64,000 nucleotides of DNA, taken from NCBI GenBank assembly GCA_963701085.1, contig OY969561.1, forward strand, positions 32,001 through 96,000, in the 5' to 3' direction. The notes beneath the pieces are model-generated. The model was not told the origin of the DNA. It saw nothing but the letters and a program-made list of their open reading frames with translations, and made no database searches. The position numbers and the translations under genes were made by a program. Positions 5,787-40,472 of this stretch are shown one piece after another (within the stretch, counting starts at the first letter, position 1; every line of letters begins with the position of its first letter). Source of the stretch: an uncultured bacterium (lineage in GTDB: Bacteria > Babelota > Babeliae > Babelales > Vermiphilaceae).

Positions 5787-6866
5787 ATGCAAGAAAAAAT
5801 TGTTTCTAGATTTTCAAAAATAGTAATACCAGCTATTTTGTTGTCCCTTCATATGCAATCTTTTGGAGTTGTTGCATATATGTCTCAAACGTTAAGAGAA
5901 TGTATAGCTGTAGTTTATGAACGAGCTGGATCTAATTGTCGTAAGCAAGCATTAGAAGAATTATATGAGGCTATTAGAGAAAATAGAATGTTGGCTCCTG
6001 ATACTATTGTTTCTCAGGGGATAGCAGAAGCTATTGAAGTTATTAATTCGTCTAATCGCAGTAATCAAAGAGAAATCATTCAATATTTAGAACAATACCT
6101 TAATAATTTAAATGACAGAGGCGTATTGCTTGCTCTTAATGGAGATATGTCTCGAGTCAGATCATGGCCATTGGGATTAATTGAACGTTCTATGATGTTA
6201 GATCAGAGAGAAGCGTGTGATTTGTTGCGTTTAAGTAATGAATTATCATGTAATTTAATATTTTGTGGTAGTGAAGAGAATGGAGTTTCATTAGATGCGT
6301 CCGTAATGAAGAATATTAAACGAGCTTTTACTGATCCATCAATTAATTTTAGGCCGAATGGTATGACTAATTCACAGTCATTAACACCGACCATTATTCT
6401 TGGTGGCACTGGTGTTAATTCTCCTGTTATTAATGGATGGGCTTTAACTCCGAATGATCTGCAATTCCCCGTTAATGTGCAATTTGTGATTCCTGATGAT
6501 TTTGCAAGTCATCAACCAGTAAGCTTAGAACTTGGTTTTTTGATACCAAATAATGGACTTGTTAATGGATATGCAAATTTTTTAGTACAAGCAAAATATT
6601 TAGATTCAAAGCATAGTTTTAATCCTAATGATGTTAGTTGGACGCATGCAAATACATCCGGTAATATAAAAATAACAGAAGCTTCAAATTCAGATAATGT
6701 AAAATATATGCTTATTAATATTCCTCTTTCAAAATCACATATAAAACCTGGTTATTTTGCAATGTTAAGTGTTTCTCGCACATCGCCAACGGGTGGTAAA
6801 TCTGAATATGCTGGTGATCTTTCGCTTGTATCAGCAGTATTCAAATATACATCGCTAAGTAACTAA
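5787..6866 (+). CDS. Secreted protein, divergent paralogue of 4115..5242
   Basis: AGGAG RBS; shared motifs AYMSQTLRECI, ENRMLA, SWP, GTGVNSPVINGW, QFVIPDD, EYAGDL..FKYT. Confidence 0.85.
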   Translation: MQEKIVSRFSKIVIPAILLSLHMQSFGVVAYMSQTLRECIAVVYERAGSNCRKQALEELYEAIRENRMLAPDTIVSQGIAEAIEVINSSNRSNQREIIQYLEQYLNNLNDRGVLLALNGDMSRVRSWPLGLIERSMMLDQREACDLLRLSNELSCNLIFCGSEENGVSLDASVMKNIKRAFTDPSINFRPNGMTNSQSLTPTIILGGTGVNSPVINGWALTPNDLQFPVNVQFVIPDDFASHQPVSLELGFLIPNNGLVNGYANFLVQAKYLDSKHSFNPNDVSWTHANTSGNIKITEASNSDNVKYMLINIPLSKSHIKPGYFAMLSVSRTSPTGGKSEYAGDLSLVSAVFKYTSLSN

Positions 6867-6917: not shown

Positions 6918-8069
6918 CTATAGAGGAAAAAGATCATAGAAAGTTTCGCTTTTTGTAATAGATTGAGAGTTTTTTATGCGCTCAATAATTTCTGAGGTTG
7001 AAATTCCTTTGGTGTAGGGTGTTATTCGCATAATATTCATAGCTAATGGGTCAGCAAAGTAAGTTTGGAGTGTGCTTGTGGCAAAATCATCACCATGAAC
7101 TACAAAATCAATATTATGAAGTTTAATAAAATCTTTGGTGGGAGCGAGTGGTGCAGAGCAAATAATTTCATCAACATATTTGCATCCGGCCATTACTTGG
7201 GCTCGTTCGTCTTGTCGTAAAATGGGTTGTCTTTTGTATGCGGTTGCTACATCATCAGGTATTAATCCTACGATCAGATGTGTTCCAAGAGCACGTGCTT
7301 GTTTGAGAAATGCTACATGACCATAATGGAATAGGTCGCCTACCATGCTTGCATAGACGCGGATGGAATCTGTTGATTTTTTTAACACGCGATTATGAAG
7401 TGGGCCAGTTGGTTGAGCGGCAATCATATCATCTGTGGTAAGTTCTCGTTCTTCTTGAATATTAAAAAAATGGTTCCATATTTTTCCGTAATGTGGCCAA
7501 TTTGGTGAAAATGATGCATTAAGATAGGGAATTGGATTGTTTGGTCCTAATACTATTGTTTCTCCAAAAGTATAAACTCGCAAGGGATAAAGCTCTTGTT
7601 TTGTTATATAGATTGGTTGATCATCTCTTTGCATCCAATGTTGTTCATAATAAATTTTGTCATTTTTTTCTATGGTTAAAAAGATATCTATACAAGGAGA
7701 ACCTTTGAGTTCGCCAAAGGTAAAGACTTCTTGATTTGTGATTTTGTAGCCAAACCATACCGGTGTTATTCCGTAATTGAGCCGTTGAAAGTCGGGAAGT
7801 AATGAAACAAATAGTTCTTCATCATCTAATTTGATATTGATATCAATATCATCATCCCAGGGAATAATTCCTTTGTGCCGAACTGCGCCCAGTAATGTTC
7901 CTCCTTGGATCCAGTATTCAAGTTTGTTAAGCGTAAAAAGTTCATGGGTGTCTTTCATGAGTTGGTATAGGTGAAGATACCATGCATCAGGCATTAATTG
8001 GTTGTTCTGTGTAGCACCACATAAAGTGAATAGATATAAAAAAGTAATGAGTAGAGTAGTTTTATGCAT
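6918..8069 (-). CDS. LicD-family phosphotransferase fused to an HxGH cytidylyltransferase, with signal peptide
   Basis: GGTLLGAVRHKGIIPWDDDIDI (LicD); GDLFHYGH, VVHGDD, YTKGISTS (cytidylyltransferase). Confidence 0.9.
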   Translation of the reverse strand: MHKTTLLITFLYLFTLCGATQNNQLMPDAWYLHLYQLMKDTHELFTLNKLEYWIQGGTLLGAVRHKGIIPWDDDIDINIKLDDEELFVSLLPDFQRLNYGITPVWFGYKITNQEVFTFGELKGSPCIDIFLTIEKNDKIYYEQHWMQRDDQPIYITKQELYPLRVYTFGETIVLGPNNPIPYLNASFSPNWPHYGKIWNHFFNIQEERELTTDDMIAAQPTGPLHNRVLKKSTDSIRVYASMVGDLFHYGHVAFLKQARALGTHLIVGLIPDDVATAYKRQPILRQDERAQVMAGCKYVDEIICSAPLAPTKDFIKLHNIDFVVHGDDFATSTLQTYFADPLAMNIMRITPYTKGISTSEIIERIKNSQSITKSETFYDLFPL

Positions 8070-9090
8070 ATTGTTTTTCCGTTATGGTTGGTTGATTTAT
8101 TATGTGATTATATAAGTTATTATATTTTGAACAGTCGGCAGTAACATGTTTTACATCTCCTGGTCGTGCTGGCATAAATAAAAATTCATTGTTGTAGGTT
8201 GGATGTTTTTTTTTCAATATATCGATGATATCAAAAATGGTGCTGCTTTTTCCTGTTGCAATATTAAACAGTTCGCCTTGCATAAGTTTTTTTTCACACA
8301 TGCCAAAGAGTATGTTTGCTTCAACAACAGTTTCTACTGGTACATAGTCACGTGTTTGTGTGCCATCACCAAAAATAGTGAGAGGAAGATTATGTTTCAT
8401 GTTGTGCATGAATTTTGCAATGACACCAGCGTAGCTTGCTTGTGGATTTTGACGGAGACCGTAAACATTAAAATAGCGCATTACGACCGTTTCCATATTA
8501 AATGCTTGAGCATATTCTTTGCAGTATAGCTCTCCTATGAGTTTTGAAAAACCGTAAGGGGATATTGGATTTGGTTGTTTTGTTTCAGTGCATTGACCGG
8601 TAGTGTCTCCATAGGTGGCACATGTTGAAGAGAAAACAAAACGTTTAACGCCATTAATGCGTGCAGCTTCAAGCAAGTTTTGTGTTCCAGTGACATTGAT
8701 GGTATGACATTTTTGAGGATCTTCCATGGATCCTGGTACAGATACAAATGCAGCAAGGTGAAAAATAATTTTTTTATTATGCGTTGCTATTAAACATGTT
8801 TCTAAATCGGTGATGCTGCCACAAATGAGAGTAACTTTATCCTTTACGGTAGCAATATTATTTTCATTGCCGGTACTTAAATCATCTAATATTGATACTT
8901 TTGCGCCAAGGTCAACCAGTTTTTCAACAAGATGAGATCCAATAAATCCGCAGCCTCCGGTCACGAGCACAGGAACTCCTTTATAGATATTTTCATATAT
9001 GTTGGCATGTAATCCTATAAAGTTGGTTAATATAGTTAATAGCGTTACAAAGGCTATTGCCGACAGATTAACATTAAAAATATATTTCAT
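8062..9090 (-). CDS. NAD-dependent nucleotide-sugar epimerase/dehydratase (WbpP/GalE-like) with signal peptide
   Basis: VTGGCGFIGS, HLAA, YGFSK, GDGTQTRD. Confidence 0.9.
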   Translation of the reverse strand: MKYIFNVNLSAIAFVTLLTILTNFIGLHANIYENIYKGVPVLVTGGCGFIGSHLVEKLVDLGAKVSILDDLSTGNENNIATVKDKVTLICGSITDLETCLIATHNKKIIFHLAAFVSVPGSMEDPQKCHTINVTGTQNLLEAARINGVKRFVFSSTCATYGDTTGQCTETKQPNPISPYGFSKLIGELYCKEYAQAFNMETVVMRYFNVYGLRQNPQASYAGVIAKFMHNMKHNLPLTIFGDGTQTRDYVPVETVVEANILFGMCEKKLMQGELFNIATGKSSTIFDIIDILKKKHPTYNNEFLFMPARPGDVKHVTADCSKYNNLYNHIINQPTITEKQYA

Positions 9091-9307
9091 TATTTGTCCT
9101 TAATAATATGTATTGTTTTTTTTATATTGATCTTAAGTAAGATGATATGGCAAATCATAGATATAATTTTAGTTCATAGTCAGATGATTGAGTTATAAAC
9201 GTTTTTGTTGGTGAATAAATATAATATTGTTGTAGTCGATTTTGTTTTTTTTGAATGATAGAACTTATATAAGAGTTTTTTTAATTGTATAACTAAAGGA
9301 GTGTTGT

Positions 9308-10177
9308 ATGAAGTTACACTTTTTAAGCAGCAGTATGCTGTGTTTGTTCATAGTAAGTAGTACTGTATTGGCGCATAATACTAATCAGAGTGTTCTACAA
9401 AATAGTGGAAATAATTATACACCAATCGAATGTACTATAATTCCAAAGCATCAATCAGAAAGTAATATTTCACATCCGCATATACCAGGCCCTCGGACAT
9501 CACGAGTTCCAAGTCATCAAGCCTCAAGTACTAACTGGAGTGGCTATGCAGCTGAAACTAATTTCAGTCATCCTCAAAAAAATTCAGTTTCTGCCGTGTC
9601 TGGATCATGGATTGTTCCAACAATTGTAGCAACAGGAATTGACGATTATGCCGCCTTATGGGTAGGTATTGATGGATATAGTACTTCCACCGTTGAACAA
9701 ATAGGCACGGAACATGATTCTATTGGTGGTATTCAGCAAGATTATGCATGGTTTGAAATGTATCCAGGAGGAAGTTATCTTATTAGTGGTTTTCCACTTA
9801 ATCCGGGAGATGTAATTAGCGCATCAGTAGTATTTATTGGACATAATACTTTTGTTATGACATTGATGAATGATACACGACAAGTATCTTTTACTGTTCC
9901 AACCCAATATACCAAATCATCAACAGCATTGAGAGAATCTGCTGAGTGGATTGTAGAAGCGCCGTATTACAATGGTATATTGCCATTAAGTGATTTTGTA
10001 ACGGCCTATATGTTTGGTTGTATGGCAACTATCAATGGTGCTACTGGTCCAATAGGTAATCACTCATGGCAAAATATTGGTATTGAAATGGTAACCAATA
10101 ATGGTATGTCAAAAGATCTTACTTCGCCATTATTGCCAGATAAGGGATCTTTCTTTGTTACATGGCATCATCAATAA
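9308..10177 (+). CDS. Secreted G1 family glutamic peptidase (eqolisin-like)
   Basis: NWSGY, WVGIDG, QIGT, AWFEMYP, SAEWIVE; signal peptide and propeptide. Confidence 0.9.
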   Translation: MKLHFLSSSMLCLFIVSSTVLAHNTNQSVLQNSGNNYTPIECTIIPKHQSESNISHPHIPGPRTSRVPSHQASSTNWSGYAAETNFSHPQKNSVSAVSGSWIVPTIVATGIDDYAALWVGIDGYSTSTVEQIGTEHDSIGGIQQDYAWFEMYPGGSYLISGFPLNPGDVISASVVFIGHNTFVMTLMNDTRQVSFTVPTQYTKSSTALRESAEWIVEAPYYNGILPLSDFVTAYMFGCMATINGATGPIGNHSWQNIGIEMVTNNGMSKDLTSPLLPDKGSFFVTWHHQ

Positions 10178-10203
10178 AAAAATTTTTATGAAATTGTTTT
10201 TAT

Positions 10204-10238
10204 TGCCCCATTATTTGATTAGGTGGGGCATTTTTTTT
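10204..10238 (+). terminator. Intrinsic terminator
   Basis: TGCCCCA...TGGGGCA followed by a T-run. Confidence 0.7.
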
Positions 10239-10257
10239 AATTAATAAAGGAGGGATA

Positions 10258-11250
10258 ATGAGGCTGCTTAGATTGATATTGTGTTTGATTTTTGTTTGTG
10301 TTGCCAGTAATGCTCAAGAGACATTTTTTTCAAAAGTAATCATCTGGGGTCATCCATTACATTCTCATACACACTCATATATTCATGGAGCTTTTTATCG
10401 TGCTTTTAAGCACCTTGGCTATGAGGTTTATTGGGTAGATAGCCTAGATGCAATGCACAATGTTGATATTCATAATGCATTGTTTATTACTGAGGGGCAG
10501 GTTGATGCAGACATGCCAAGACGGCATGATTGTTATTATATACTTCATAATTGGGATCCTGAGAATTATTGGGAGTTATTTGATGATAATCGTTGCATTC
10601 TTTTGCAGGTATATACAAATGAGTGTTTATCTTATGTTACCGAAAAAGTGGATGATTATATTTATAGTAATAGCAAAGAAAAAATGATTTTTATGCCTTG
10701 GGCAACAGATTTACTGCCATATGAAATTGATGATATAAAGAATGGTTGCAATAAAAAAATCAAAAAAGATAATGCTATTACGTGGGTTGGTACTATTGGC
10801 GATGGGAGGTTTGGCAACCAGAATGAGTTAGCTGTGTTTAAAAAAGCTTGTGCAGAAAATAATATTCTATTTAACCATAGGGTCAATGTACCCGAGGAAG
10901 AAGGAATTTCTTTAATTCAAACTTCATGTATGGCGCCAGCTATACAGGGATCCTACCAATGTGAAAAGGGTTATATTCCTTGTAGGATTTTTAAAAATAT
11001 TAGTTATGGGCAATGGGGCATAACCAATAATAAAACGGTGTATGATTTGTTCAAGGGTAAAATAATTTATAATTCTGATACATATCAGTTATTTTATGAT
11101 GCCCAGGAATATATTGCTCAAGCATCAATAGAAGAGTTATATGAATTAATGGATTTTGTAAGAAATAATCATACCTATATTAATCGTATTGAAACATTAT
11201 TAATGTTTATGAAAAAGGCATTACATATAAAGGAAGAATATGAAGAATAA
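10258..11250 (+). CDS. Secreted putative GT-B glycosyltransferase (CgeB-like C-terminus)
   Basis: Signal peptide; PCRIFKNISYG and HTYINRIETLL; glycan cluster context. Confidence 0.55.
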   Translation: MRLLRLILCLIFVCVASNAQETFFSKVIIWGHPLHSHTHSYIHGAFYRAFKHLGYEVYWVDSLDAMHNVDIHNALFITEGQVDADMPRRHDCYYILHNWDPENYWELFDDNRCILLQVYTNECLSYVTEKVDDYIYSNSKEKMIFMPWATDLLPYEIDDIKNGCNKKIKKDNAITWVGTIGDGRFGNQNELAVFKKACAENNILFNHRVNVPEEEGISLIQTSCMAPAIQGSYQCEKGYIPCRIFKNISYGQWGITNNKTVYDLFKGKIIYNSDTYQLFYDAQEYIAQASIEELYELMDFVRNNHTYINRIETLLMFMKKALHIKEEYEE

Positions 11251-12019
11251 TAAGGCATTGTTCGCTATTTTTTTGTGTAATTTTTTATCAGTTTATGCTG
11301 ATGATAGCATTAATAGAATATTAGATACATATAGAGATTATTTGGAGCAGGGTACGTATGTTGGATTTGATTGGTCTCATTATATAAAAAAGCCTGAATC
11401 GCGTTATTATACCTTTAAAATGGCATTTGAGCATTTTAAGGAAAGTAGTGGACGTGTTGTTGTTGAATTAGGGACATCGAGGAGTTTTGTGCATGGTGGG
11501 CATCCTGGATGTAATCTTGATGATATACAGTATTGGACTCCCAAAGATCCAAAAAATTGGGACTGGGGTGCAGGATTTTTTACGCGTATGGCAGCTGAAT
11601 GTTTATCTCATCTTAATCCAATAATTCATACGGTTGACCTTATACCAGCTCATATTGAGCGTTGTAAGGTAATTACTGCTGATCTGAATAATTATCTTAT
11701 GTATCACGTTGCATCTTCAGTTGATTTTCTAAAAAACTGTGCACCGCAGAGTATTGATTTGCTTTATGTTGATACAGGTGATATGACGCCAATAGAGCCA
11801 ACAGCGCAATTACAATTGGAAGAGGCTAAGGTTATTGTGGCGCAGGACTTATTGGCACCAAGTGGCATAATTTTAATTGATGATGTGCGTAATCAAACAC
11901 CAAAGCAATATGGAGAAACATCTGAGTTGGGCAAGGCAAAATATTCCATTCCTTATTTTCTTGCCCATGGTTTTGAAATTATTGCTGATGAATATCAGGT
12001 AATTTTACAAAAAAAGTAG
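11240..12019 (+). CDS. Secreted class I SAM-dependent methyltransferase
   Basis: VVELGTS, IDLLYVD, GIILIDD; signal peptide ending VYA. Confidence 0.75.
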   Translation: MKNNKALFAIFLCNFLSVYADDSINRILDTYRDYLEQGTYVGFDWSHYIKKPESRYYTFKMAFEHFKESSGRVVVELGTSRSFVHGGHPGCNLDDIQYWTPKDPKNWDWGAGFFTRMAAECLSHLNPIIHTVDLIPAHIERCKVITADLNNYLMYHVASSVDFLKNCAPQSIDLLYVDTGDMTPIEPTAQLQLEEAKVIVAQDLLAPSGIILIDDVRNQTPKQYGETSELGKAKYSIPYFLAHGFEIIADEYQVILQKK

Positions 12020-12020
12020 T

Positions 12021-12719
12021 TTAATTGTTTGTGTTCATGAATAAAACATTACCATGCCAATGAGGCTGTATGTCAGACCATATTTCTATAAAGTCATGAT
12101 CATTCATCCATGAGGTAAGTTCATCATACATGACGCAGTTTTCCCAGAAACGTTGTAAATTTACTTCTGTATAAATAAGTTTTACATTTTTTAATGAATT
12201 GAGTGCTCCTTGTAGAGCATTCAATTCATTTCCTTCCATATCAAGCCATAAAAAATCAATGGCACTCACATTATTGTTGTTTGCCCACTCATCTAATGTA
12301 GTAACTTGAACGGTAATGGGATGATCTAAGTCTGAGTGGAAATAGTCTGTATTAAAAGAATCTTGTGGCCGTAAAAGTGAACTTGCTCCGCCGGCTAGAT
12401 AAAAAAGAAATTCACCTTTTGTGTTTGATAGTGCAACTTGTGTAGCCGTGACATTGTCGTTTTTAGTCGCGACTATTTGAAGTGCTGCAAATGATTCTGG
12501 TGATGGTTCAAAGGCATAAATTTTTCCTTGTGGCCAAAGCTGACTCATCCATTGAGTATCTTCACCAAATTGTGCACCAGCTTCGATAATTATTGGATTT
12601 GATGGTAATATCTTTTTGAGTAATACATATGGCACTGCTTCACCTATTGCGTGAGTAATGTTGGTTTGTGCTGCTAAAAACAATAATAATAATGTGTGTA
12701 ATATTTTTTGTGATTGCAT
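12021..12719 (-). CDS. FkbM family methyltransferase with signal peptide
   Basis: IEAGAQFG, AFEP, LWLDMEGNEL; likely start MQSQK at 12719. Confidence 0.9.
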   Translation of the reverse strand: MQSQKILHTLLLLFLAAQTNITHAIGEAVPYVLLKKILPSNPIIIEAGAQFGEDTQWMSQLWPQGKIYAFEPSPESFAALQIVATKNDNVTATQVALSNTKGEFLFYLAGGASSLLRPQDSFNTDYFHSDLDHPITVQVTTLDEWANNNNVSAIDFLWLDMEGNELNALQGALNSLKNVKLIYTEVNLQRFWENCVMYDELTSWMNDHDFIEIWSDIQPHWHGNVLFMNTNN

Positions 12720-12738
12720 GACTTCCCTTTTTTTTAGA

Positions 12739-13836
12739 TTAATGATTATCGGTGATTTGGCTAAAAATTGACTTCCATTTTTTGATTGTTGCAGCGCGAT
12801 GCTTTTGCGCATACAGTTTTATTTTTGTGCGCAATGCATCAAAGTCAGCTGAATCAATTTTACGTTTAAGATCATCCCACGAATCAAAATATGTTATGAT
12901 TTCACTGTTTTCTCTATTGTACCATTCTGCGAGTTGATAATTGTTTTTAAAATAATTACCATTTTGCCACCAAATTTTTCCTGTGTCTAAGTTGTTAATC
13001 ATAAAGGTAATGGATGGTATGAAGTAGGGTAATCCATTCTGTATGTTTTCAAAGAATGCAACATTAGACCATGCGTAGGGAATATGAATTATGCCTTTAA
13101 AGTCTTTTAAATCACTTGGCCCATTGTATCTTCCATTGTATGCGTTGACTCCTTGGCGTGAACATTCTTGTATAAGATTCATAGATATATCATTAAGATA
13201 AGGTGGAATGAAGAATGTTTGTGATTTATCTATATATGCAGGAATGATAGACTGATTGTTCTGTGTAGTAATAATACCACTTGGTTGTATTGCTTCATGG
13301 TTAAAGATAATGATTTTTTGTTGTGCATAAAAAGATTCAAAAGCGGTGTAAGGAATAGTATAGACGTTTTTTTTGTTTCTAGCTTGTTGAAAAAGATGAT
13401 AAAATTCTTTATCAGGAAATTCACAGTCCAAGCTTGCGAGGTCAGCGTAATCAAAGCGATTGCACACCCAAATAATGAGAGGTTTTGCATAATTGTTTTG
13501 TAAGAAAATTCGTGCAAGTGGTGCCGTGTCAGAGATGATAATTGCGTCAAATTGGTTGAAGTAATCTTTGTGTTTATTCCATATGTTTTCTGCACGTTCA
13601 TGGCCAATATTATAAAGAGTATTTCCCGTTGATGTACCATCAAATTCTTTTGGAGCTAAATCAGAAATAAAAAGAGATGTTACATTAAATTGTAGTTCTT
13701 GCGCTATTGTCTCTATTTCTCGCAAGCATCCTTTATGAAAACTTAGGTGCAAAACATATAATGAGGCACTACAGTAAGTGTGCATAACACCTAATAATAT
13801 ACAAAGAGATAAGAGGTATTTTATTAGGAAATTCAT
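12739..13836 (-). CDS. Secreted hypothetical protein, possible glycosyltransferase
   Basis: Signal peptide; in an operon with GTs; IIHIPYAWSNVAFFE resembles a GT-B donor-binding segment. Confidence 0.5.
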   Translation of the reverse strand: MNFLIKYLLSLCILLGVMHTYCSASLYVLHLSFHKGCLREIETIAQELQFNVTSLFISDLAPKEFDGTSTGNTLYNIGHERAENIWNKHKDYFNQFDAIIISDTAPLARIFLQNNYAKPLIIWVCNRFDYADLASLDCEFPDKEFYHLFQQARNKKNVYTIPYTAFESFYAQQKIIIFNHEAIQPSGIITTQNNQSIIPAYIDKSQTFFIPPYLNDISMNLIQECSRQGVNAYNGRYNGPSDLKDFKGIIHIPYAWSNVAFFENIQNGLPYFIPSITFMINNLDTGKIWWQNGNYFKNNYQLAEWYNRENSEIITYFDSWDDLKRKIDSADFDALRTKIKLYAQKHRAATIKKWKSIFSQITDNH

Positions 13837-13838
13837 TT

Positions 13839-14648
13839 TTATTCTCTTATTTCGGCATGATTTTTATCAAGTGCTAATAATTTAGGAGAGCAAGTAGGGT
13901 ATCCTTTTTTTTCCCCGTTTTCTGGATAGCAGTATGAACGATCAAGAATTATGCTTGGTTGATTATCGATAAAATAACGATTTAAATGGCTTTCATCATG
14001 CCATATGGCGATGTAATTATGTTGTTCAATATCGGTGAAAATGTTGTTTGTGATACTATCTGCCATTTTTATAAATTCACTTGTTGTTCCTCCGTAAAAA
14101 CCACCAGCAAAATAATGAGTTCCTGAATCGTACGTTATGTAGGCTGTAGATTTTTCATTGCGATCATAGGGTGGTTCATTACCCCACAAAGGTTTATTTT
14201 TTTCAAAACCAGGATGTTGTGTTGCAACACGATCTGCTAAGATTTCATCACCTTCAGTTCCAACAAAAAGCATATCCGCATCCGTTGCAAACATGTAATC
14301 GGTTTGAGCAAAGAGATTTTTATGTTGATTGTATATTGAAAAGCGCATGAGGGTGTCATAAGGCCAGCCAAGTCGTTTTTGATAGGTAATAACAACGATA
14401 TCCTTGTAGGGGCTTTTTAGCAAACTATTGAGGCCATGAGCTGTACTATCAGTAAAAATGAAATAGGTTTTTTTATGATCAGGACAGAAGTATTTTTCTG
14501 CAGAATCAAGAAGTGGTTTGACGAATGCAATATACTTACCTGTTGCAACAATACATAATCCAATATGTAATGGGTTGCTATTAAGTGAAAACAATGTGCA
14601 GAGCAGTAGAAGCGATATATGTTTAATAGAGCAATTCATAATTTTCAT
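13839..14648 (-). CDS. Family 6 glycosyltransferase (ABO/alpha-1,3-Gal(NAc)T-like)
   Basis: ATGKY, WPYDTLMRF, DADMLF, YFAGGFYGG, WHDESHLNRY. Confidence 0.92.
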   Translation of the reverse strand: MKIMNCSIKHISLLLLCTLFSLNSNPLHIGLCIVATGKYIAFVKPLLDSAEKYFCPDHKKTYFIFTDSTAHGLNSLLKSPYKDIVVITYQKRLGWPYDTLMRFSIYNQHKNLFAQTDYMFATDADMLFVGTEGDEILADRVATQHPGFEKNKPLWGNEPPYDRNEKSTAYITYDSGTHYFAGGFYGGTTSEFIKMADSITNNIFTDIEQHNYIAIWHDESHLNRYFIDNQPSIILDRSYCYPENGEKKGYPTCSPKLLALDKNHAEIRE

Positions 14649-14659
14649 TGATTTCCTTT

Positions 14660-15556
14660 TTATCGAAGTATGAACGTTGGTTCATACTCAGTATGTACAG
14701 CTTTGTTTTTTATTTTGTAGAGTGGAGAAGTGTCCATTTTGTAGCCAGCTTCAAATTTTTCTAAAAGTTCTTCTGGTGTATAAAGGTTCATATCGCGATT
14801 GAGGATATTTATCGTTTGAACTTTATTGAGTGGTATGTTGAGTATTTTTGAATTTTCATAAAAAAGCCCGATGGGGCTTGGCGCTTTATGTTGTACCCAC
14901 CATGTGGCCCATTTTCCTTCTAAGAGATTGGGGTTTGTGTAATCAAGTGATTTAAAGAGAGAAATGAGATTTTTTTTACGGTATAAGGTCATATCGACGG
15001 TGTTTGGGTAATGCCAATCTTTTTCTCCTGATTCAAATTCCCATGCAAAAATAGTTTTATAGATGTGCGTGAGTGGTGGTATTTTTTGTGTAGCATTTTC
15101 TGTATAGCAGTAATCAAGATGTGATCCAAGTTTTAAGTAGAAGCCATAAGCATTTGTTTTTTCAAGCCAGTCAATGCATTCATGGATTATAATGTTATCT
15201 TTTACTACATTGTCATCAACAGCAAAGATGACATAATCAGAAGATGATGTTTCAATTGCTTGAATTGTTAATGTTTTAAAATCGCTGATACTTTGTTGAT
15301 GTAAAAATTGTACATGGGGAAATTGTGATGCTACTTCATTAAAAGCGGCATCATACCGATCGCTACTTGTGCGGTAAATCACTGCTGTTGAATTGATATC
15401 AGTTGCATATAAGTTCAATGATTCGAGGAGTGCATAAAGTTGTAGTGGTCGATCAAAAGAAAAAATTATAAGATCGGCAGCATATCGTTCTGAGGCTGTC
15501 TCTAGACAAAAAATATGAGTAAACAACAAGGACAGTATAACTATAGTTCTTTTCAT
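14660..15556 (-). CDS. Secreted GT-A-like hypothetical protein
   Basis: IIFSFDRPLQLYALLESL, FAVDD; paralogous to the C-terminal half of 15573..17060. Confidence 0.6.
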   Translation of the reverse strand: MKRTIVILSLLFTHIFCLETASERYAADLIIFSFDRPLQLYALLESLNLYATDINSTAVIYRTSSDRYDAAFNEVASQFPHVQFLHQQSISDFKTLTIQAIETSSSDYVIFAVDDNVVKDNIIIHECIDWLEKTNAYGFYLKLGSHLDYCYTENATQKIPPLTHIYKTIFAWEFESGEKDWHYPNTVDMTLYRKKNLISLFKSLDYTNPNLLEGKWATWWVQHKAPSPIGLFYENSKILNIPLNKVQTINILNRDMNLYTPEELLEKFEAGYKMDTSPLYKIKNKAVHTEYEPTFILR

Positions 15557-15572
15557 GTGTCACTCTTCATTT

Positions 15573-17060
15573 TTATGGAATTAATGTAATATGGCTTTCA
15601 TAAAAACAGAGGCCAAGACGGTCAAGGTTTCCTTCATTGGCCCATACCGCCTCTAATCCATTTGGCGTGAGATCATAATGACTTTGTAATACTTGAGTAA
15701 GAGATTCTGTTTTCTTGTGAAGGACAAGATCAAGTGAGTTAGCACATGACCATTTGTCTTGAGCAAGGGCAAAGTTCCAGGTAAAGATATTTTCTCGACA
15801 CTCTACTAATGGTATATTGGGGTAGGTGCGCATACCATTGTTTGCATTAAGTTTAAAGTAAAAAGCGTATGTGTCCGTATCCTCTAGGTTTTTTATACAT
15901 TCATGCAGGGATAATGGTTGTTGAAATTGTGCATCTCCCTTTGCAAAAAGAATGTAGTCGTTGTTTGTTTTTTGATAAAGATCAAACAGAGAAATGCTAA
16001 AATTGCTTCGGTGATCACTGATTAGACAAAATTCTATTGCGGGATATGATTCTTGGATGGTGACATATTCTTTTGATTCTTGCGCGGATAATGGTCGGTA
16101 CATGACAAATATTTGATCAATGCCATTCACGTACATTGTTAAAGATTCGAATAATTGAGTAAGCTTGTTTGGGGTTTGCGCAAAAATAATAGCATCTGCC
16201 TTTACATGTTTGTGATTTCGTTTGTTTGTTGGTTTTTTTGAGAGACAATTATAGCGTTTTTTCTTTTTAATAAGTTGGGCTAAATATGCCTGAAGTTGTC
16301 TGCTGACATGATGGTCGCTGATGCTGTTTTCATCATTATAAATATACATAATGTCAGAAATAAATTGGTGACGCTTTCCTGCCATTTCTATCATGGGAAA
16401 CATCATAGCCATGTCCCAGGTCATAGAATAAAATTTTCCTAAGTATAATAAGTCTTCTAGTTTTATTTCTTTAAATAACCATGCATAAAACGTGCGTAAA
16501 TGAGTTGGTAAATGTTGAAAATCTCTGAACGCATTGTTTTCTACTATGTAATCAGGCATTGGTGATGCCCAGCCTCGTATTCCTGATGGATGTAGTTGAA
16601 ATTGTCCATAGGTAAGCCATATTTCACCTGATGAATAAACTTCGTTGAGACGCGACAATACGTTATCATCAGAGAACCAATCATCTCCGTCAAGTGTGAC
16701 AATAATTTCATCATCATTACAGCTATGAATCATGTTGTAAAGATTATGCAGCGCGCCTTTGCGAGTTTGGTTTTTTATAAGCGCTATTTTATTATCTGGA
16801 TCATTGTGGATGAGGTATTCTTCTACAAGGTCTCCTGTTCCATCAGGAGAGCAATCATCAGTATATATGACACGAAAATTCGTATAATTTTGGTAGAGCA
16901 CTGATTGAAGGTTGTGAGCATACCATTTTTGATTATTGTATGAGGGGATAACGATTACAAATGGTTTTTCTGGATAAGAGCTACTATTTGCTAAGCTTGG
17001 AATGAAAAATAATAAAGATAGTGTAGTGAAAACAGATAAGATGACTGTAAAAAGTTTCAT
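15573..17060 (-). CDS. GT2 glycosyltransferase fused to a second GT-like domain, with signal peptide
   Basis: VIPSYN, DDCSPDGT, LDGDDW. Confidence 0.88.
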   Translation of the reverse strand: MKLFTVILSVFTTLSLLFFIPSLANSSSYPEKPFVIVIPSYNNQKWYAHNLQSVLYQNYTNFRVIYTDDCSPDGTGDLVEEYLIHNDPDNKIALIKNQTRKGALHNLYNMIHSCNDDEIIVTLDGDDWFSDDNVLSRLNEVYSSGEIWLTYGQFQLHPSGIRGWASPMPDYIVENNAFRDFQHLPTHLRTFYAWLFKEIKLEDLLYLGKFYSMTWDMAMMFPMIEMAGKRHQFISDIMYIYNDENSISDHHVSRQLQAYLAQLIKKKKRYNCLSKKPTNKRNHKHVKADAIIFAQTPNKLTQLFESLTMYVNGIDQIFVMYRPLSAQESKEYVTIQESYPAIEFCLISDHRSNFSISLFDLYQKTNNDYILFAKGDAQFQQPLSLHECIKNLEDTDTYAFYFKLNANNGMRTYPNIPLVECRENIFTWNFALAQDKWSCANSLDLVLHKKTESLTQVLQSHYDLTPNGLEAVWANEGNLDRLGLCFYESHITLIP

Positions 17061-17233
17061 GTAATTCTTCCTTTTTTTGTAATAGTGTCTGTAATTCTTA
17101 TGTTTGTCTTACCATGTGCTATTAGTCGTGTCAATTATAAACAGTTGAGTCTTGATTTGTGGTGTGTCTTATTGTTATTTTAAATATAGATAATTGGAGA
17201 TATTGTTAGGGAATAAATTTTTAAATAAGAGGC

Positions 17234-18244
17234 ATGATGTTGCACAATAGTTCTTTTTTACCGCAGTTTATGTTTTGGATATGCATTTTTTCATCAGCAA
17301 TGATATTTTCTATGCAAAAAGATGCAAAAATTTATGTTGCTGGACATCGGGGGTTAGTTGGTTCAGCTATTATGCGGGCTCTCAACGCTCAAGGTTATGC
17401 AAATATAATAGTCCGCGGTTCTTTTGAGTTGGATTTACGTAATCAGCAGGCAGTGAATGAATTTTTTGAACAGGAGCGACCAGAATATGTTTTTCTTGCA
17501 GCGGCAAAGGTTGGAGGTATTCATGCAAATAATATTTATCCTGCCCAATTTATTTACGATAATATAACTATTCAAACTAATATTATTCATGCAGCATATA
17601 TGAATAACGTAAAAAAACTTCTTTTTTTAGGGTCTTCATGTATTTATCCGCGTGATTGTCCTCAGCCAATTAAGGAAGAATATCTTTTAACATCCTCTCT
17701 TGAAAAAACAAATGAGGCTTATGCAATCGCAAAAATAGCCGGCCTAAAAATGTGTGAATATTATAATAAACAGTATGGAACTCATTTTATTGCCGTAATG
17801 CCCACTAATCTTTATGGACCATATGACAATTTTGATTTGGAATCATCGCATGTGATTCCTGCTTTAATTGTAAAAATTTATAATGCCTATCGAGCCAATA
17901 GTCCAACATGTGAAGTGTGGGGAACTGGTAATCCACGGCGTGAATTTTTACATGTTGATGATCTTGCGCAGGCACTCTTGTTGTTAATGAATACATATGA
18001 TAGTAATGGTATTGTTAATATTGGTTCAGGACAAGACCTTTCAATTCGTGAGCTTGTTACACTTATTAAAAATAGTATCGGGTATGAAGGCGAAATTGTG
18101 TGGAACAGTTCTCAGCCTGATGGGACTCCGCGCAAGTTACTCAATATTGACACGTTAATAAGTATGGGTTGGCAGCCACAAATATCTTTGTTTGATGGAC
18201 TGATCGATACGATATCCTGGTGCAAGAATAATGGTGTTTTTTAG
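17234..18244 (+). CDS. fcl: GDP-L-fucose synthase with N-terminal hydrophobic extension
   Basis: AGHRGLVGSA, AAAKVGGI, GSSCIYP, YAIAK, PTNLYGP. Confidence 0.95.
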   Translation: MMLHNSSFLPQFMFWICIFSSAMIFSMQKDAKIYVAGHRGLVGSAIMRALNAQGYANIIVRGSFELDLRNQQAVNEFFEQERPEYVFLAAAKVGGIHANNIYPAQFIYDNITIQTNIIHAAYMNNVKKLLFLGSSCIYPRDCPQPIKEEYLLTSSLEKTNEAYAIAKIAGLKMCEYYNKQYGTHFIAVMPTNLYGPYDNFDLESSHVIPALIVKIYNAYRANSPTCEVWGTGNPRREFLHVDDLAQALLLLMNTYDSNGIVNIGSGQDLSIRELVTLIKNSIGYEGEIVWNSSQPDGTPRKLLNIDTLISMGWQPQISLFDGLIDTISWCKNNGVF

Positions 18245-18284
18245 TTAAATGTATGTTTTTTGGACACTTTTTTAGGGGTGAATA

Positions 18285-19391
18285 ATGAAAAAGCAGAATT
18301 ACGTATTATTATTAGTTTTCTTTTCTTATTTTTCGTATGCATTAGACAAAATAGCAATGATTATTGGGGTAACTGGTCAGGATGGGGCATATCTTTCTGA
18401 ATTTTTACTTAATAAAGGGTATATCGTTCATGGTATTAAGCGAAGAGCTTCTCTTATTAATACGCAACGGATTGATCATTTATATGAGAATCCTGATTAT
18501 TATGGGCGGTTTTTTTTACATTATGGAGATGTGACCGATAGTTCTAACATAATTCGTCTTATTCAGGAGATTCAACCAGATGAGATTTATAATTTATCCG
18601 CGCAAAGTCATGTGCAGGTTTCATTTGAAATGCCATTATATACGGCAGAGGTTGATGCTCTTGGGCCGTTGCGAATTCTTGAAGCGATACGTATTGTGAG
18701 CGGTGCAAAAAAAATAAAATTTTATCAGGCATCAACAAGTGAAATGTTTGGTTTAGTTCAAGAGATACCACAAACTGAAACTACGCCTTTTTATCCTCGA
18801 TCTCCCTATGGTGTTGCAAAATTGTATGGGCATTGGATTACTAAAAATTATCGTGAGTCATATGGAATATTTGCTTGTTCAGGAATTCTTTTCAATCATG
18901 AATCACCTGTTCGAGGCGAAACTTTTGTAACACGCAAAGTTTCACGTGCGGTAGCACGGATAGCATATGGCTTACAGGATGTCCTCTATCTGGGTAATTT
19001 GGAGGCGCTGCGCGATTGGGGCCATGCAAGAGACTATGTTGAGGCTATGTGGCTCATGTTGCAACAAGATACTCCGGATGATTTTGTTATTGCTTCAGGT
19101 GAAAATCATTCAGTAAGAGAGTTTGTTGAGCGTGCCTTTGCAGAAATTGGCGTAGATATAGCGTGGGAGGGAAAAGGTCTTGATGAAGTTGGTTATGATC
19201 GAAAAACAGGTAGAGAATTAATATTTGTTGATGCGCGTTATTTTAGGCCAGCAGAAGTTGATCTGCTGATTGGAGATTCCGCAAAAGCACGTAACGTGTT
19301 AGGTTGGCAAGCCAGAACTACCTTTACCCAATTGGTTAAAGAAATGGTAGATCATGAACTTAAGAGCTTGAAAAAAATGTGCGGTCATTAG
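18285..19391 (+). CDS. gmd: GDP-mannose 4,6-dehydratase with signal peptide
   Basis: [36 protein letters not shown]. Confidence 0.96.
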
Positions 19392-24676: not shown

Positions 24677-24964
24677 ATGGCATTTATTTTTGATGTAAAA
24701 GTTTTTCCTAGCTCGCAAAAAAAGGGTTGGGTAATTGATAAAACAGGCAATTTAAAATGTTATCTTAAGAGCCCTGCAGAGCAGGGAAAGGCAAATGATG
24801 AGCTTATTAAAAGTCTTGCAAAAGCGCTTGGTGTTACACAATCTATGATTTCTATTACATCGGGCGCTCAATCGCGTAAGAAACGGATAAAAGTTGATGT
24901 TGATATGACCTTTAATCAACTTTTAGAGTTATTGGGAATTGATTGGCAGATGGATATGTTTTGA
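24677..24964 (+). CDS. DUF167/YggU family protein
   Basis: PAEQGKAN..L...LA, GAQSRKK; AGGAGG RBS. Confidence 0.85.
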   Translation: MAFIFDVKVFPSSQKKGWVIDKTGNLKCYLKSPAEQGKANDELIKSLAKALGVTQSMISITSGAQSRKKRIKVDVDMTFNQLLELLGIDWQMDMF

Positions 24965-29642: not shown

Positions 29643-29743
29643 AATATTCGTACCTATTAAAATGAATAAGGTTATACTGTTGTAAGTTATCAAAATTAAT
29701 GTATAAAGAGTATATCGTACAAATAAGAAATGGGGAAAAAAAT

Positions 29744-33996: not shown

Positions 33997-35205
33997 ATGA
34001 AGAATATAGCGTGTGTTTTATTTAGTTTTCTTTTTATTGTGCAGAGTGCATATGCAGAGTTTCAGTTTGATTATGATCCAATTCTTGTTGTTGTGTTAAT
34101 GGTCAAAAATGAAGAGACGGTGATGCGAGCAACCTTGCAACCATTTATTGATGGTGGCGTTGACTCGTTTTTTATTTTTGATACAGGATCAACTGATAAC
34201 ACTGTTGCGGTGACGGAAGATTTTTTTGCTGAGCATGGTGTTACGCGAGGATATATTGCGCAAGAACCATTTATTGATTTTGCTACATCACGTAACCGCG
34301 CGCTTGATCTGGCTCAAGAAAAATTCCCTCATGCAGCATTTATGGTGATGCTTGATGCCGAGTGGTATCTTAATGATGCCCGTGCATTGGTTGAATTCTG
34401 TGAACTATGTTTGTTGCGTGGTGACATGCATCTTTCTTATTTGATGCATATTGTTAATCAAGCGCTTGATTTTTATACGTGTAGATTAATTCGCTGTAAT
34501 TGTGGTGTGCGTTTTGGTGGAGTGGTGCATGAAACTGTTCTCCAATCATCTGGCGTTAAAGTTCCTGAAAATATTTTTTTTGAGTATTTACCGGAATTAA
34601 ATGGTATTGAAAAGTCAAATGCTCGGTATGTAAGAGATTGTGAATTGTTGCTCAAAGAACATCAAAAAAAGCCGTGGTGTACGCGAACATTGTTTTATCT
34701 TGCACGTACCTGCGAAGATCTTGGTGATTGGGAACAGGCATATGATTTTTATAAAATACGTGTTGAAATGGTTGGTTGGGATGAAGAAGATTTTATCGTG
34801 AAATATCGTTTAGCGCAGACAATTAAAAAGTTAGTATTGTGTTCAGAGTATGGAGGAAAGTATCAATGGTCAGAGGCGCTTGATTATTATATGCAAGCAT
34901 ACCAAATGCGTCCTCATCGCGCTGAGCCATTGGTTGAGATTGCTGACTATTATATAGCAATTGATCAAATGGCATCCGCATTCTTGTTTGCTCGCCATGC
35001 GGCTGAAATGGAATATCCGGAAAAAGATATTTTATTTGTTGAAAAGTATCTTTATAACTATTATCGCTATGAAGTTCTTGCCCGTTGTGCGTGGTATATT
35101 AATGAGTTTGAAATTGGTGAATGGGCTGCGCGCATGGCATATGAAGCGTATCCTGATTATAAATATGCCAAGATTAATATGAATTGTTATGTATCGCGTA
35201 CATAA
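33997..35205 (+). CDS. GT2 glycosyltransferase with TPR domain and signal peptide
   Basis: MVKNEE, DTGSTDNT, FATSRN, LDAE, GVVHE, FYLA..TPR. Confidence 0.9.
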   Translation: MKNIACVLFSFLFIVQSAYAEFQFDYDPILVVVLMVKNEETVMRATLQPFIDGGVDSFFIFDTGSTDNTVAVTEDFFAEHGVTRGYIAQEPFIDFATSRNRALDLAQEKFPHAAFMVMLDAEWYLNDARALVEFCELCLLRGDMHLSYLMHIVNQALDFYTCRLIRCNCGVRFGGVVHETVLQSSGVKVPENIFFEYLPELNGIEKSNARYVRDCELLLKEHQKKPWCTRTLFYLARTCEDLGDWEQAYDFYKIRVEMVGWDEEDFIVKYRLAQTIKKLVLCSEYGGKYQWSEALDYYMQAYQMRPHRAEPLVEIADYYIAIDQMASAFLFARHAAEMEYPEKDILFVEKYLYNYYRYEVLARCAWYINEFEIGEWAARMAYEAYPDYKYAKINMNCYVSRT

Positions 35206-35679: not shown

Positions 35680-38136
<2,457 letters not shown>

Positions 38137-38198
38137 CAAAACCCCCCTTAATGAATTTATATATATAAAACAGTATCAAATTTTTTATATGAAAAACA

Positions 38199-38702: not shown

Positions 38703-40472
<1,770 letters not shown>

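Follow-up and report, generated by a model that had tools for sequence, protein, structure and literature searches.

Signal-peptide-like leaders on a nucleotide-sugar and glycosyltransferase pathway of a Dependentiae bacterium suggest glycan assembly outside the cytoplasm

Why should a bacterium place hydrophobic leaders in front of Gmd, Fcl and the other enzymes of a glycan pathway, when textbook bacterial nucleotide-sugar chemistry is all cytoplasmic and only lipid-linked donors are used beyond the inner membrane? The question is raised by a gene cluster at positions 6918-19391, and by further glycan genes downstream of it, in a stretch of 64,000 nucleotides (the window, G000:C1:32001-96000). 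The genome it belongs to, G000, is a single contig of 1,198,634 bp with 37% G+C and a marker completeness of 92.6%, and a bacterial rRNA operon lies inside the window. We treat the organism as a Babeliales-like, obligate intracellular member of the Dependentiae (TM6), with a Dependentiae-like genome of 1.2 Mb; the genomes of its relatives measure 0.8-1.7 Mb. A preliminary description of this DNA had proposed that the pathway is exported and that its glycans are assembled outside the bacterial cytoplasm. We found that the leaders exist, are conserved and lineage-specific, have been gained repeatedly, and co-vary along the ManC-Gmd-Fcl pathway, and from this we infer export, cleavage, the compartment, the acceptor and the source of the cofactors.

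Pfam searches confirmed the gene annotations of the window that we started from, and all 11 glycan genes at 6918-19391 have the hydrophobic N-terminal stretch that had been claimed for them (Table 1). The same had been said of the GT2-TPR protein, the epimerase at 48721 and three GT4 glycosyltransferases (GT denoting glycosyltransferase families), and these have leaders too, which brings the whole window to 16 of 16. Lysine or arginine precedes the hydrophobic stretch in 15 of the 16, in line with the basic n-region described for most of them, Fcl being the one gene without; the n-region is net positive in all 16, and the flank after the stretch is neutral or acidic in most. In all 16 the hydrophobic part falls within the first 30-35 residues, and the uncharged stretches are 11-30 residues long. 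Small residues at -3 and -1 stand near the hydrophobic end of most glycan leaders as judged by eye, and of 368 of 391 signal-peptide-like open reading frames (ORFs) genome-wide in a rule-of-thumb scan. The catalytic Pfam domains begin 2-15 residues past the hydrophobic stretch, with no stem between the two.

A crude classifier counted 510 of 1071 ORFs as signal-peptide-like (SP-like), 391 of which have no later membrane helix, and at least 6 of the Pfam-annotated ORFs in the class are false positives (adh_short, CarD, G6PD, 6PGD, DJ-1, HHH_6), either gene fragments or proteins whose domain begins at residue 3-8. The proportion matches the 44% of coding sequences with a predicted signal peptide, including 78% of ankyrin proteins, given for Chromulinavorax destructans in the available text of Deeg 2019 (PMC6561590). 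The preliminary description had overlooked that about half of the proteome in this phylum has published signal peptides, so the trait is not special to glycan genes. Of the 746 ORFs with 200 aa or more, 50% have a hydrophobic 12-residue window (Kyte-Doolittle value, KD >= 2.0) in residues 1-40; when internal stretches of 40 residues are taken instead, the figure is 8-10%. The 16 of 16 glycan leaders exceed even this high background (binomial p = 7e-6). PrfB, RadA, Fic, HIT, VOC and YggU (= DUF167), which had been put forward as leaderless controls, do lack leaders, as do the Mur ligases, also users of UDP-sugars (leaderless in 4/4).

Outside the window, leaderless glycan genes were sought among GT2, GT4, Epimerase and NTP_transferase, a choice by which other families could be missed; the glycan-type exceptions are one GT4 and one FkbM-like gene. 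One GT2 has an anchor-type N-terminus followed by a K-rich linker, which is the cytoplasmic-facing type and differs from all other leaders. It opens a second glycan cluster that further holds a Nucleotid_trans protein, a 510-aa GT2, UDP-glucose 6-dehydrogenase (Ugd) with a classical leader, a GT32 and the leaderless FkbM-like methyltransferase. Beyond the window, 316 SP-like ORFs reach 150 aa or more; 18 of them cross locus boundaries and were dropped, and 284 of the remaining 298 are covered by the Pfam scan. They include ankyrin and WD40 proteins, phospholipases, proteases, AAA ATPases, S-adenosylmethionine (SAM) methyltransferases, a 2OG-dioxygenase-like protein, a pyridine-nucleotide oxidoreductase, Ugd and thymidylate kinase. 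Classical leaders thus stand on other cofactor-dependent enzymes as well (Ugd, the AAA ATPases, the SAM methyltransferases and the 2OG-dioxygenase-like protein), and the view that exported proteins meet ATP, SAM and NAD(P) at their destination is supported.

Gmd and Fcl both match their enzyme families at full length. The Gmd match spans the whole profile (positions 1-332 of 332), and the translations of Gmd and Fcl both show the Y-x-x-x-K motif of short-chain dehydrogenases/reductases (SDR), whose residues we take to be catalytic. In the second SDR epimerase the Rossmann strand begins 2-3 residues past the predicted cleavage site. Two cluster proteins have no Pfam family. The AlphaFold2 (AF2) model of one, at 12739, drew 266 Foldseek matches in the PDB at E <= 1e-3, and the matches listed were all glycosyltransferases, mostly GT1-type with the GT-B fold. 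The other, at 10258, gave a poor model (mean confidence, pLDDT, 54.5) with no Foldseek match at E <= 1e-3; it is a possible glycosyltransferase, a lead that comes from atlas neighbours named 'glycosyltransferase family protein'. Sequence searches of the PDB with three cluster proteins returned chance-level matches only.

Do the predicted proteins really begin with these leaders? The preliminary description had named downstream starts as an outcome that would undo its proposal, and start-site signals speak against them. The 3' end of the 16S rRNA reads CCTCCT, and reading the sequence upstream of 17 genes (the 16 glycan genes and the A4 peptidase) revealed a Shine-Dalgarno (SD)-like motif ahead of the leader start in about 15, of the types AAGGAG, AAGGAAG, AAGAGG, AGGGGTG and similar, at proper spacing. 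The Met codons that follow the leader in LicD-cytidylyltransferase (Met26), Fcl (Met27) and Gmd have none. Over the whole genome, an SD match of 4 nt or more stands ahead of 60% of the starts of SP-like ORFs, against 14% of post-leader Met codons and 19% of an internal-Met control. Most of the glycan genes have no start codon at all between leader and catalytic domain, and many orthologues are alike in this; in the two-domain GT2 the next start codon is residue 54. Judged by these signals, the leaders are translated.

That the leaders are an artefact of taking the longest ORF, with true starts further down, is accordingly a barely credible explanation: the longest-ORF start is indeed wrong for 4 of the 16 genes (FkbM, GT4a, GT4b, GT4c), and in the first epimerase an SD-like motif also precedes a GTG at residue 41, a caveat for that gene, but all four SD-supported starts retain the leader, the SD evidence sits at leader starts, many orthologues have no start codon after the leader, and most orthologues by far keep an in-frame, open and hydrophobic extension, where by our own estimate about 7% of random codons would be stops at this base composition.

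Comparison with relatives led us to reject a second such outcome, that close relatives lack the leaders. Among the Gmd copies from relatives 16 of 20 carry one (17 of 21 with the window's own), many of them with no alternative start, and leader-bearing orthologues were found for nine further cluster genes: the epimerase, both family-less proteins, both methyltransferases, GT6, both GT2 proteins and Fcl. The only named close relative with a leader-bearing Gmd is 'Candidatus Dependentiae bacterium Noda2021' (L043, 70% identity). Fcl orthologues have a leader in 12 of 15 cases, with one ambiguous and two (G034, G038) leaderless. Across genus, family and order the leaders are alike in character and not in sequence, and sequence conservation begins right after them, as is also seen in the family-less protein at 10258, whose four orthologues have leaders of differing sequence. 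Most of seven homologous ORFs listed from relatives for the two-domain GT2 have a hydrophobic N-terminal extension. In other bacteria, 76 of 80 Gmd loci begin directly at the Rossmann strand and are leaderless. The proposed comparison with homologues bears out an extension that is conserved in relatives for Gmd and Fcl and lineage-specific for Gmd. The three non-relative copies with an apparent true leader come from a named Dependentiae genome and from two metagenome-assembled genomes (MAGs), one of them labelled Chlamydiae and the other unclassified. One more row had been flagged (L040), but it proved to be an ORF-extension artefact.

A quick maximum-likelihood tree of 100 Gmd sequences clusters most leader-bearing copies, with weak support (81). 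It places the leader-bearing copy of G028 among leaderless copies from Armatimonadota and Saccharibacteria with 99% support, and another leader-bearing copy groups with leaderless ones. At least three changes of leader state are forced across the starred branches, and leaders have therefore been gained more than once. The state is also coherent within the pathway: in G034 and G038 neither Gmd nor Fcl has a leader, and in every other genome in which the pair was seen the two enzymes each have one. A leader-bearing ManC occurs in G011, G012, G017, G018 and G019, together with a leader-bearing Gmd in each of them; ManC is leaderless in G038, in G021 (beside a leaderless Gmd copy) and probably in G034, where the start is ambiguous. 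A simple correlation between leader-bearing Gmd and absence of ManC was rejected, ManC being present in 17 of 41 genomes, several of them with leader-bearing Gmd; what holds instead is that the leader state of ManC tracks that of Gmd. Enzymes that share metabolites (ManC, Gmd, Fcl) thus have the same leader state, as expected if the leader sets a real compartment. The clusters of G034 and G038, which comprise ManC and leaderless glycosyltransferases and, in G038, an ABC exporter, are the ordinary cytoplasmic layout. G012 (L109) and G021 (L115) each have two adjacent Gmd copies, one leader-bearing and one leaderless, a hint that a single cell may run a cytoplasmic GDP-sugar pathway alongside an exported one.

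The reading that we tentatively favour, at a little under an even chance, is that the leaders are Sec signal peptides and that the enzymes act in the periplasm or at the surface, on exported collagen-like (GXT)n proteins, with nucleotide sugars of the host. The extracytoplasmic pathway of the preliminary description is in this sense the best-supported reading: its leaders are real and conserved, and its export step is a prediction from sequence logic. Sec-type leaders, mostly cleavable by signal peptidase I, would have been grafted onto cytoplasmic-type enzymes within the Dependentiae lineage. The enzymes would cross SecYEG unfolded and have an extracytoplasmic site of action, with the periplasm or the cell surface as the most probable places, assembling stepwise a fucose-containing, methylated and probably phospho-substituted glycan on proteins that are themselves exported by Sec, with GDP-mannose, UDP-sugars, NADPH, SAM and CTP supplied from the host cytosol. 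G000 encodes SecY (2e-102) and signal peptidase I (Peptidase_S26, 7e-22). Tat (twin-arginine) export of folded, cofactor-loaded enzymes was rejected, with no twin-arginine n-regions and no TatC found in G000.

Host supply is proposed because the genus is without ManC and because this is an energy parasite with nucleotide translocases. ManC (PF22640) had no match in G000 or in any of 10 same-genus genomes (0/11), so GDP-mannose must come from outside the bacterium; the PF00483 matches in G000 are GalU-like and GlmU-like only. Two TLC-type nucleotide translocases are encoded in G000, and host nucleotides must therefore cross the outer membrane. The conventional outward route looks poorly equipped: Bac_transf (the priming phosphoglycosyltransferase), Polysacc_synt (Wzx) and Wzy_C had no matches in G000, which has a single MraY/WecA homologue (PF00953). 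Babeliales are described as without most lipopolysaccharide genes in the available text of Yeoh 2016.

The best acceptor candidates would be the many (GXT)n collagen-like fibre proteins. Thirteen ORFs of the genome contain 8 or more Gly-x-y triplets in a row; in 11 of these Thr is the leading residue at the third position, and 11 of the thirteen are SP-like. Both collagen-like proteins of the window sit between its glycan clusters, and the longer has 402 residues in GXY repeats, with Thr third in 112 repeats. Two signal-peptide proteins just upstream of the cluster share a C-terminal domain with the collagen-like proteins, and an N-terminal domain with the protein at 35680-38139 only. One collagen-like ORF outside the window matches BclA_C at 2e-9 and 37.6 bits, just under the curated cut-off of 38 bits. 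Acceptors that leave unfolded through Sec could be glycosylated only by enzymes beyond the membrane, and glycosylating them is a plausible reason for exporting the pathway. Several large proteins of the genome have a Peptidase_S74 'chaperone of endosialidase' domain, which is typical of phage and viral fibres.

A number of observations weigh against export to the periplasm. The first concern is chemistry. Gmd needs bound NADP+ and Fcl needs NADPH, and with no Tat system found the enzymes must fold and load their cofactor after export; the arrival of NADPH, GTP and nucleotide-diphosphate (NDP)-sugars in the periplasm is a putative step. The second is topology: several of the uncharged stretches, at 24-30 residues, also fit uncleaved anchors, and GT4a has a K-rich stretch and a Met38 after its leader, which makes its topology ambiguous. 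An MsbA/PglK-like ABC exporter 3 kb upstream of the cluster leaves some probability to a lipid-linked cytoplasmic route. Leader-like extensions, overlooked in the preliminary description, also stand on a few enzymes expected in the cytoplasm (GlmU-like, GalU-like, thymidylate kinase (Tmk) and pyruvate phosphate dikinase), and of 14 leader-bearing Fcl copies 13, by our own count, retain the ancestral Met immediately behind the leader, which would permit a leaderless isoform; a leader-like N-terminus may therefore not always mean full export, or dual initiation or dual localisation may occur. Finally, the collagen-like proteins are candidate acceptors by co-occurrence, and among 17 loci of relatives only 3 have a GXT collagen-like ORF less than 20 kb from Gmd.

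A further feature separates the glycan enzymes from other leader-bearing proteins. In 127 of the 391 SP-like ORFs a Met stands directly before the first charged residue after the leader (32.5% vs 1.85% background), and it is followed by Glu in 95 and by Asp in 18. The context is that of a classical signal-peptidase site, with A/G/S/C at -1 and L/I/A/T/V at -3, and then Met-Glu. Of the ankyrin proteins 12 of 19 have the motif, and of the WD40 proteins 8 of 12 (20 of 31 together); it is also seen in relatives down to order level. At the leader boundary it is missing in all 15 bona fide envelope proteins examined, in all 20 glycan enzymes and in all 8 proteins of the collagen or fibre class (Fisher's test, p = 2e-5 and 1e-6 for the contrasts, 1e-6 being that of the glycan enzymes with the ankyrin and WD40 proteins); the near-misses are Fcl, with Met-Gln, and GT32, whose regex match sits downstream of the leader. 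Met-Glu is a stable, eukaryote-like N-terminus by N-degron rules, and we hypothesize from the sequence pattern that the motif marks proteins bound for the host cytosol; it may be a host-targeting or an N-terminus-stabilising code. If it does mark host-bound proteins, the glycan enzymes class with those retained in the envelope.

These elements can be combined into a bolder and more doubtful proposal. The full pathway (ManC in relatives, Gmd, Fcl, Ugd, epimerases, glycosyltransferases, methyltransferases and phosphotransferase) might have moved into a periplasm in chemical continuity with the cytosol of the host. This would be a Golgi-like compartment in which soluble enzymes, processed by signal peptidase, glycosylate Sec-exported collagen-like fibre proteins one step after another with GDP-mannose, UDP-sugars, NADPH, SAM and CTP of the host. 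A separate Met-Glu code would sort ankyrin and WD40 effectors onward to the host cytosol with a eukaryote-like, N-degron-safe N-terminus.

Rather than stopping in the periplasm, the enzymes could cross both membranes, by Sec and then a type II secretion system (T2SS) or outer-membrane vesicles, and work as effectors in the host cytosol or vacuole, where they would convert host GDP-mannose and glycosylate host or bacterial surface targets. We consider this unlikely, even though all the cofactors are certainly available in the host cytosol and two secretins and a T2SS-F-type gene are present. The leader-bearing PI3/PI4-kinase-like, phospholipase and AAA proteins suggest that many enzymes are host-bound, which is the published reading for the signal-peptide ankyrin proteins of the phylum in the available text of Pagnier 2015 (PMC4378268) and Deeg 2019 (PMC6561590), and Chlamydia trachomatis offers a precedent in secreting glycogen enzymes that use host UDP-glucose (Gehre 2016, PMC4829429, available text). 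Against it, the glycan enzymes lack Met-Glu/Asp and group with envelope proteins, insofar as the hypothesis of host targeting by the motif holds, and cleavage at the sites predicted by rule of thumb would leave many mature proteins with L, Q, D, E or N as first residue. The Arg/N-degron pathway of eukaryotes treats such residues as destabilising. Both secretin-domain ORFs look short or N-terminally truncated, with Secretin_N on a separate ORF, so that a split or a frameshift in these genes is possible, as is an artefact of ORF calling.

Quite improbable, in our judgement, is that the leaders are uncleaved tethers which hold the catalytic domains on the cytoplasmic face of the inner membrane, as an assembly line fed by imported nucleotide sugars. 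This would solve the cofactor problem, and it draws on the long uncharged stretches, on the positively charged flank after the helix in GT4a, on EamA/DMT and ABC exporter genes nearby and on the one GT2 for which the genome uses just such an anchor. That GT2 is also the clear cytoplasmic anchor from which the other leaders differ: a basic n-region with a neutral or acidic flank predicts, by the positive-inside rule, the opposite topology, and by the rule-of-thumb scan small residues at -3 and -1 stand in most SP-like ORFs. No flippase, polymerase, ligase or priming transferase was found in G000 that would move a cytoplasmic product outward, and it is not obvious why soluble enzymes such as Gmd, Fcl, ManC and Ugd, which acquired leaders repeatedly, should need a tether. 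Uncleaved anchors, raised in the preliminary description as a way in which its proposal could fail, are thus disfavoured by the n-regions, the -3/-1 residues and the missing stem.

Lower still do we rank leaders that are weak or partly used, through alternative initiation or inefficient export that yields two isoforms, or as a near-neutral 5' extension into AT-rich DNA that encodes K/F/I/L-rich peptides. A Met after the leader is retained in Fcl and, at the canonical start, in the GalU-like, GlmU-like and Tmk proteins, the GlmU-like gene has an SD at both candidate starts, the genome has 37% G+C, and leaders have been gained many times. Most glycan genes, however, have no alternative start, an SD is rarer at post-leader Met than at random internal Met, and two features argue for selection: the leader state is coherent across ManC, Gmd and Fcl, and leaders persist at order-level divergence.

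How would a periplasmic, Sec-dependent glycan pathway compare with known systems? The phylum's large predicted secretome is already known, and the leaders described here are an instance of that phylum-level trait. The secretome papers treat ankyrins, hydrolases and ORFans; here we describe a coherent nucleotide-sugar pathway (ManC in relatives, Gmd, Fcl, Ugd, epimerases, glycosyltransferases, methyltransferases and LicD-cytidylyltransferase). Terms for glycosyltransferases, fucose or nucleotide-sugar enzymes do not occur in the available text of three Dependentiae genome papers, whose supplementary tables might list such proteins, and literature searches found no published description of a leader-bearing nucleotide-sugar pathway in Dependentiae. 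As far as these searches show, the whole pathway behind Sec leaders, its co-variation, the repeated gain and the Met-Glu class distinction are new.

Exported glycan enzymes are known from Chlamydia trachomatis, where normally cytoplasmic glycogen enzymes are found in the inclusion lumen, fed with host UDP-glucose (available text of Gehre 2016). In both cases an obligate intracellular bacterium would let nucleotide-sugar-dependent glycan enzymes leave its cytoplasm. In Chlamydia this involves type 3 secretion signals, a storage homopolymer and a host transporter that supplies the vacuole; here we see Sec-type leaders, a predicted complex heteroglycan and the inclusion of enzymes that interconvert nucleotide sugars.

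The order of an N-terminal hydrophobic signal and then a catalytic domain is also that of Golgi type II glycosyltransferases (eukaryotic GT6, LicD-like fukutin/FKRP and membrane-bound UXS), and the Golgi performs sequential glycosylation in a non-cytosolic compartment supplied with nucleotide sugars; Gmd and Fcl are cytosolic in eukaryotes. Unlike the Golgi enzymes, those described here have no stem, the small -3/-1 residues suggest cleavage, and Gmd is closest to bacterial sequences; the leaders are therefore a local invention and not inherited eukaryotic architecture. Inherited Golgi anchors as the origin of the leader were rejected for Gmd, whose nearest sequences are bacterial and leaderless. 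Chloroviruses and mimiviruses, intracellular parasites of protists with host-independent glycosylation, use their own Gmd/GMER-type enzymes and glycosyltransferases on host GDP-mannose to decorate their surface, which in mimivirus includes collagen-like fibre proteins. Such viruses express their enzymes directly in the host cytoplasm, unlike a bacterium, which must export them, hence the leaders. The atlas neighbours of two cluster proteins are largely viral, which we take as leads only.

BclA of the Bacillus exosporium is O-glycosylated on Thr residues in the mother-cell cytoplasm. The candidate acceptors resemble it in their (GXT)n repeats and, in the one ORF just under the cut-off, in a BclA_C-type C-terminal domain; unlike BclA they have signal peptides, so glycosylation would follow export. 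Legionella Lgt/SetA, the large clostridial toxins and NleB are likewise nucleotide-sugar-dependent glycosyltransferases of bacteria that draw on host cofactors and do their work beyond the bacterial cytoplasm. They are single enzymes with type III or type IV secretion or self-translocation signals, and they modify host proteins; to our knowledge none is a multi-enzyme pathway with nucleotide-sugar synthesis behind Sec leaders.

If the favoured reading is true, this would be the first bacterial stepwise, nucleotide-sugar-driven glycosylation outside the cytoplasm, with synthesis of GDP-fucose and UDP-glucuronate included, and the periplasm of an energy parasite would hold NADPH, SAM and nucleotides from the host. 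For periplasmic glycoengineering, Gmd, Fcl and glycosyltransferases would be on offer in natural versions with a signal peptide. The system offers a testable entry to how the Dependentiae, widespread and almost unstudied, build their surface and sort about half of their proteome. Should the leaders prove to act as tethers or to be leaky, the figure of a '44% secretome' for the phylum would need re-reading.

Table 1. Features of the window and of the rest of genome G000. Positions are those of the window unless marked as genome; SD, Shine-Dalgarno motif.
Feature	Position	Strand	Evidence	N-terminus and remarks
LicD-family phosphotransferase + cytidylyltransferase fusion	6918..8069	-	Pfam LicD 8e-19, CTP_transf_like 2e-18	leader ~19 residues
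SDR NDP-sugar epimerase/dehydratase (first epimerase)	8062..9090	-	Pfam Epimerase 6e-57	leader ~29 residues; SD AAGGA before start; leaders in three orthologues from relatives
Peptidase A4, secreted, not a glycan gene	9308..10177	+	Pfam Peptidase_A4 8e-30	classical leader; SD AAGGAG; interrupts cluster
Family-less conserved protein	10258..11250	+	no Pfam match	classical leader; in same conserved cluster
SAM methyltransferase (Methyltransf_24)	11240..12019	+	Pfam 4e-6	leader; SD AAGGAAG; five orthologues with leaders
FkbM-family methyltransferase	12021..12719	-	Pfam Methyltransf_21 2e-27	leader; start moved to residue 32 of ORF 12021-12812, SD AGGGAAG preceding Met32 and not the longest-ORF start; two orthologues agree
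GT-B-fold glycosyltransferase, no Pfam family	12739..13836	-	AF2 pLDDT 72.8 + Foldseek	leader; five orthologues with leaders
GT6 glycosyltransferase	13839..14648	-	Pfam Glyco_transf_6 9e-47	leader; SD AAAGGAA; five orthologues with leaders
GT2-like protein	14660..15556	-	weak Pfam GT2, 4e-3, below cut-off	leader; six orthologues with leaders
Two-domain GT2	15573..17060	-	Pfam GT2 2e-21	leader; SD AAGGAAG; no alternative start ahead of catalytic domain
Fcl (GDP-fucose synthase type)	17234..18244	+	Pfam Epimerase 8e-66	26-residue leader without K/R; SD AAGAGG ahead of leader ATG
Gmd (GDP-mannose 4,6-dehydratase)	18285..19391	+	Pfam GDP_Man_Dehyd 5.5e-152	19-20-residue leader; SD AGGGGTG
GT2-TPR protein	33997..35205	+	Pfam GT2 + TPR, both weak	classical leader; SD GAGAGGG; paralogue at genome 434535 likewise leader-bearing
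Second SDR epimerase	48721..49812	+	Pfam Epimerase 4e-60	leader; SD TAGGGG; no alternative start
GT4a	49836..51005 (ORF 49827)	+	Pfam Glycos_transf_1 2e-38	leader; start refined to residue 4
GT4b	53957..55207 (ORF 53945)	+	Pfam 1e-33	leader; start refined to residue 5
GT4c	55149..56315 (ORF 55101)	+	Pfam 3e-32	leader; start refined to ~residue 17
Collagen-like (GXT)n protein	35680..38139	-	Pfam Collagen 6e-49	signal peptide
Second collagen-like (GXT)n protein	38703..40472	-	Pfam Collagen 7e-25	signal peptide
Two signal-peptide proteins	4115-5242, 5787-6866	+	blastp within genome; no Pfam family	signal peptide
Collagen-like family elsewhere	genome 14987-25253, 249304-252369, 599497-600456 and others		Gly-x-y repeats	
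Met-Glu/Asp examples	21688-22773 and 22881-23678	-	motif scan	
YggU (DUF167)	24677-24964			leaderless
T2SS-F-type gene	25054-26241			
MsbA/PglK-like ABC exporter	2263-4020	+		
ABC ATPase fragment, 121 aa	5353-5718	+		
EamA/DMT transporter	28725-29693	-		
OPT-family transporter	32336-33937	+		
MutS-related protein (domains III + V)	26264-28186	+		longest ORF, GTG start (predicted)
PI3/PI4-kinase-like tandem family	51031-51963, 52056-52262, 52268-52981, 52988-53941	+		leaders on 51031, 52056 and 52988 members
Second glycan cluster	genome 1,034,810-1,044,634			
GT2 of second cluster	genome 1034810-1035673			anchor type, then K-rich linker
FkbM-like gene	genome 1037092-1037751			leaderless
Ugd of second cluster	genome, within second cluster			classical leader; strong SD motif
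GT4	genome 1123866-1125002			leaderless
Thymidylate kinase	genome 725039-725773			leader-like extension
GlmU-like	genome 759265-			leader-like extension
GalU-like	genome 276888-277907			leader-like extension
Pyruvate phosphate dikinase	genome 317771-320248			leader-like extension
Secretin-domain ORFs	genome 994897-995622, 999271-1000473			
Secretin_N ORF	genome 993226-994800			

Several neighbouring genes complete the picture of the window. The MsbA/PglK-type gene, the ABC ATPase fragment and the EamA/DMT and OPT-family transporter genes are candidates for exporting a lipid-linked glycan or importing nucleotide sugars. Between the GT4 genes lies a tandem family of PI3/PI4-kinase-like (phosphatidylinositol 3-/4-kinase-like) genes, and two of its members (52056-52262 and 52268-52981) resemble one copy split in two. 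In its longest ORF the MutS-related protein begins, at the predicted start, with a signal-peptide-like hydrophobic segment.

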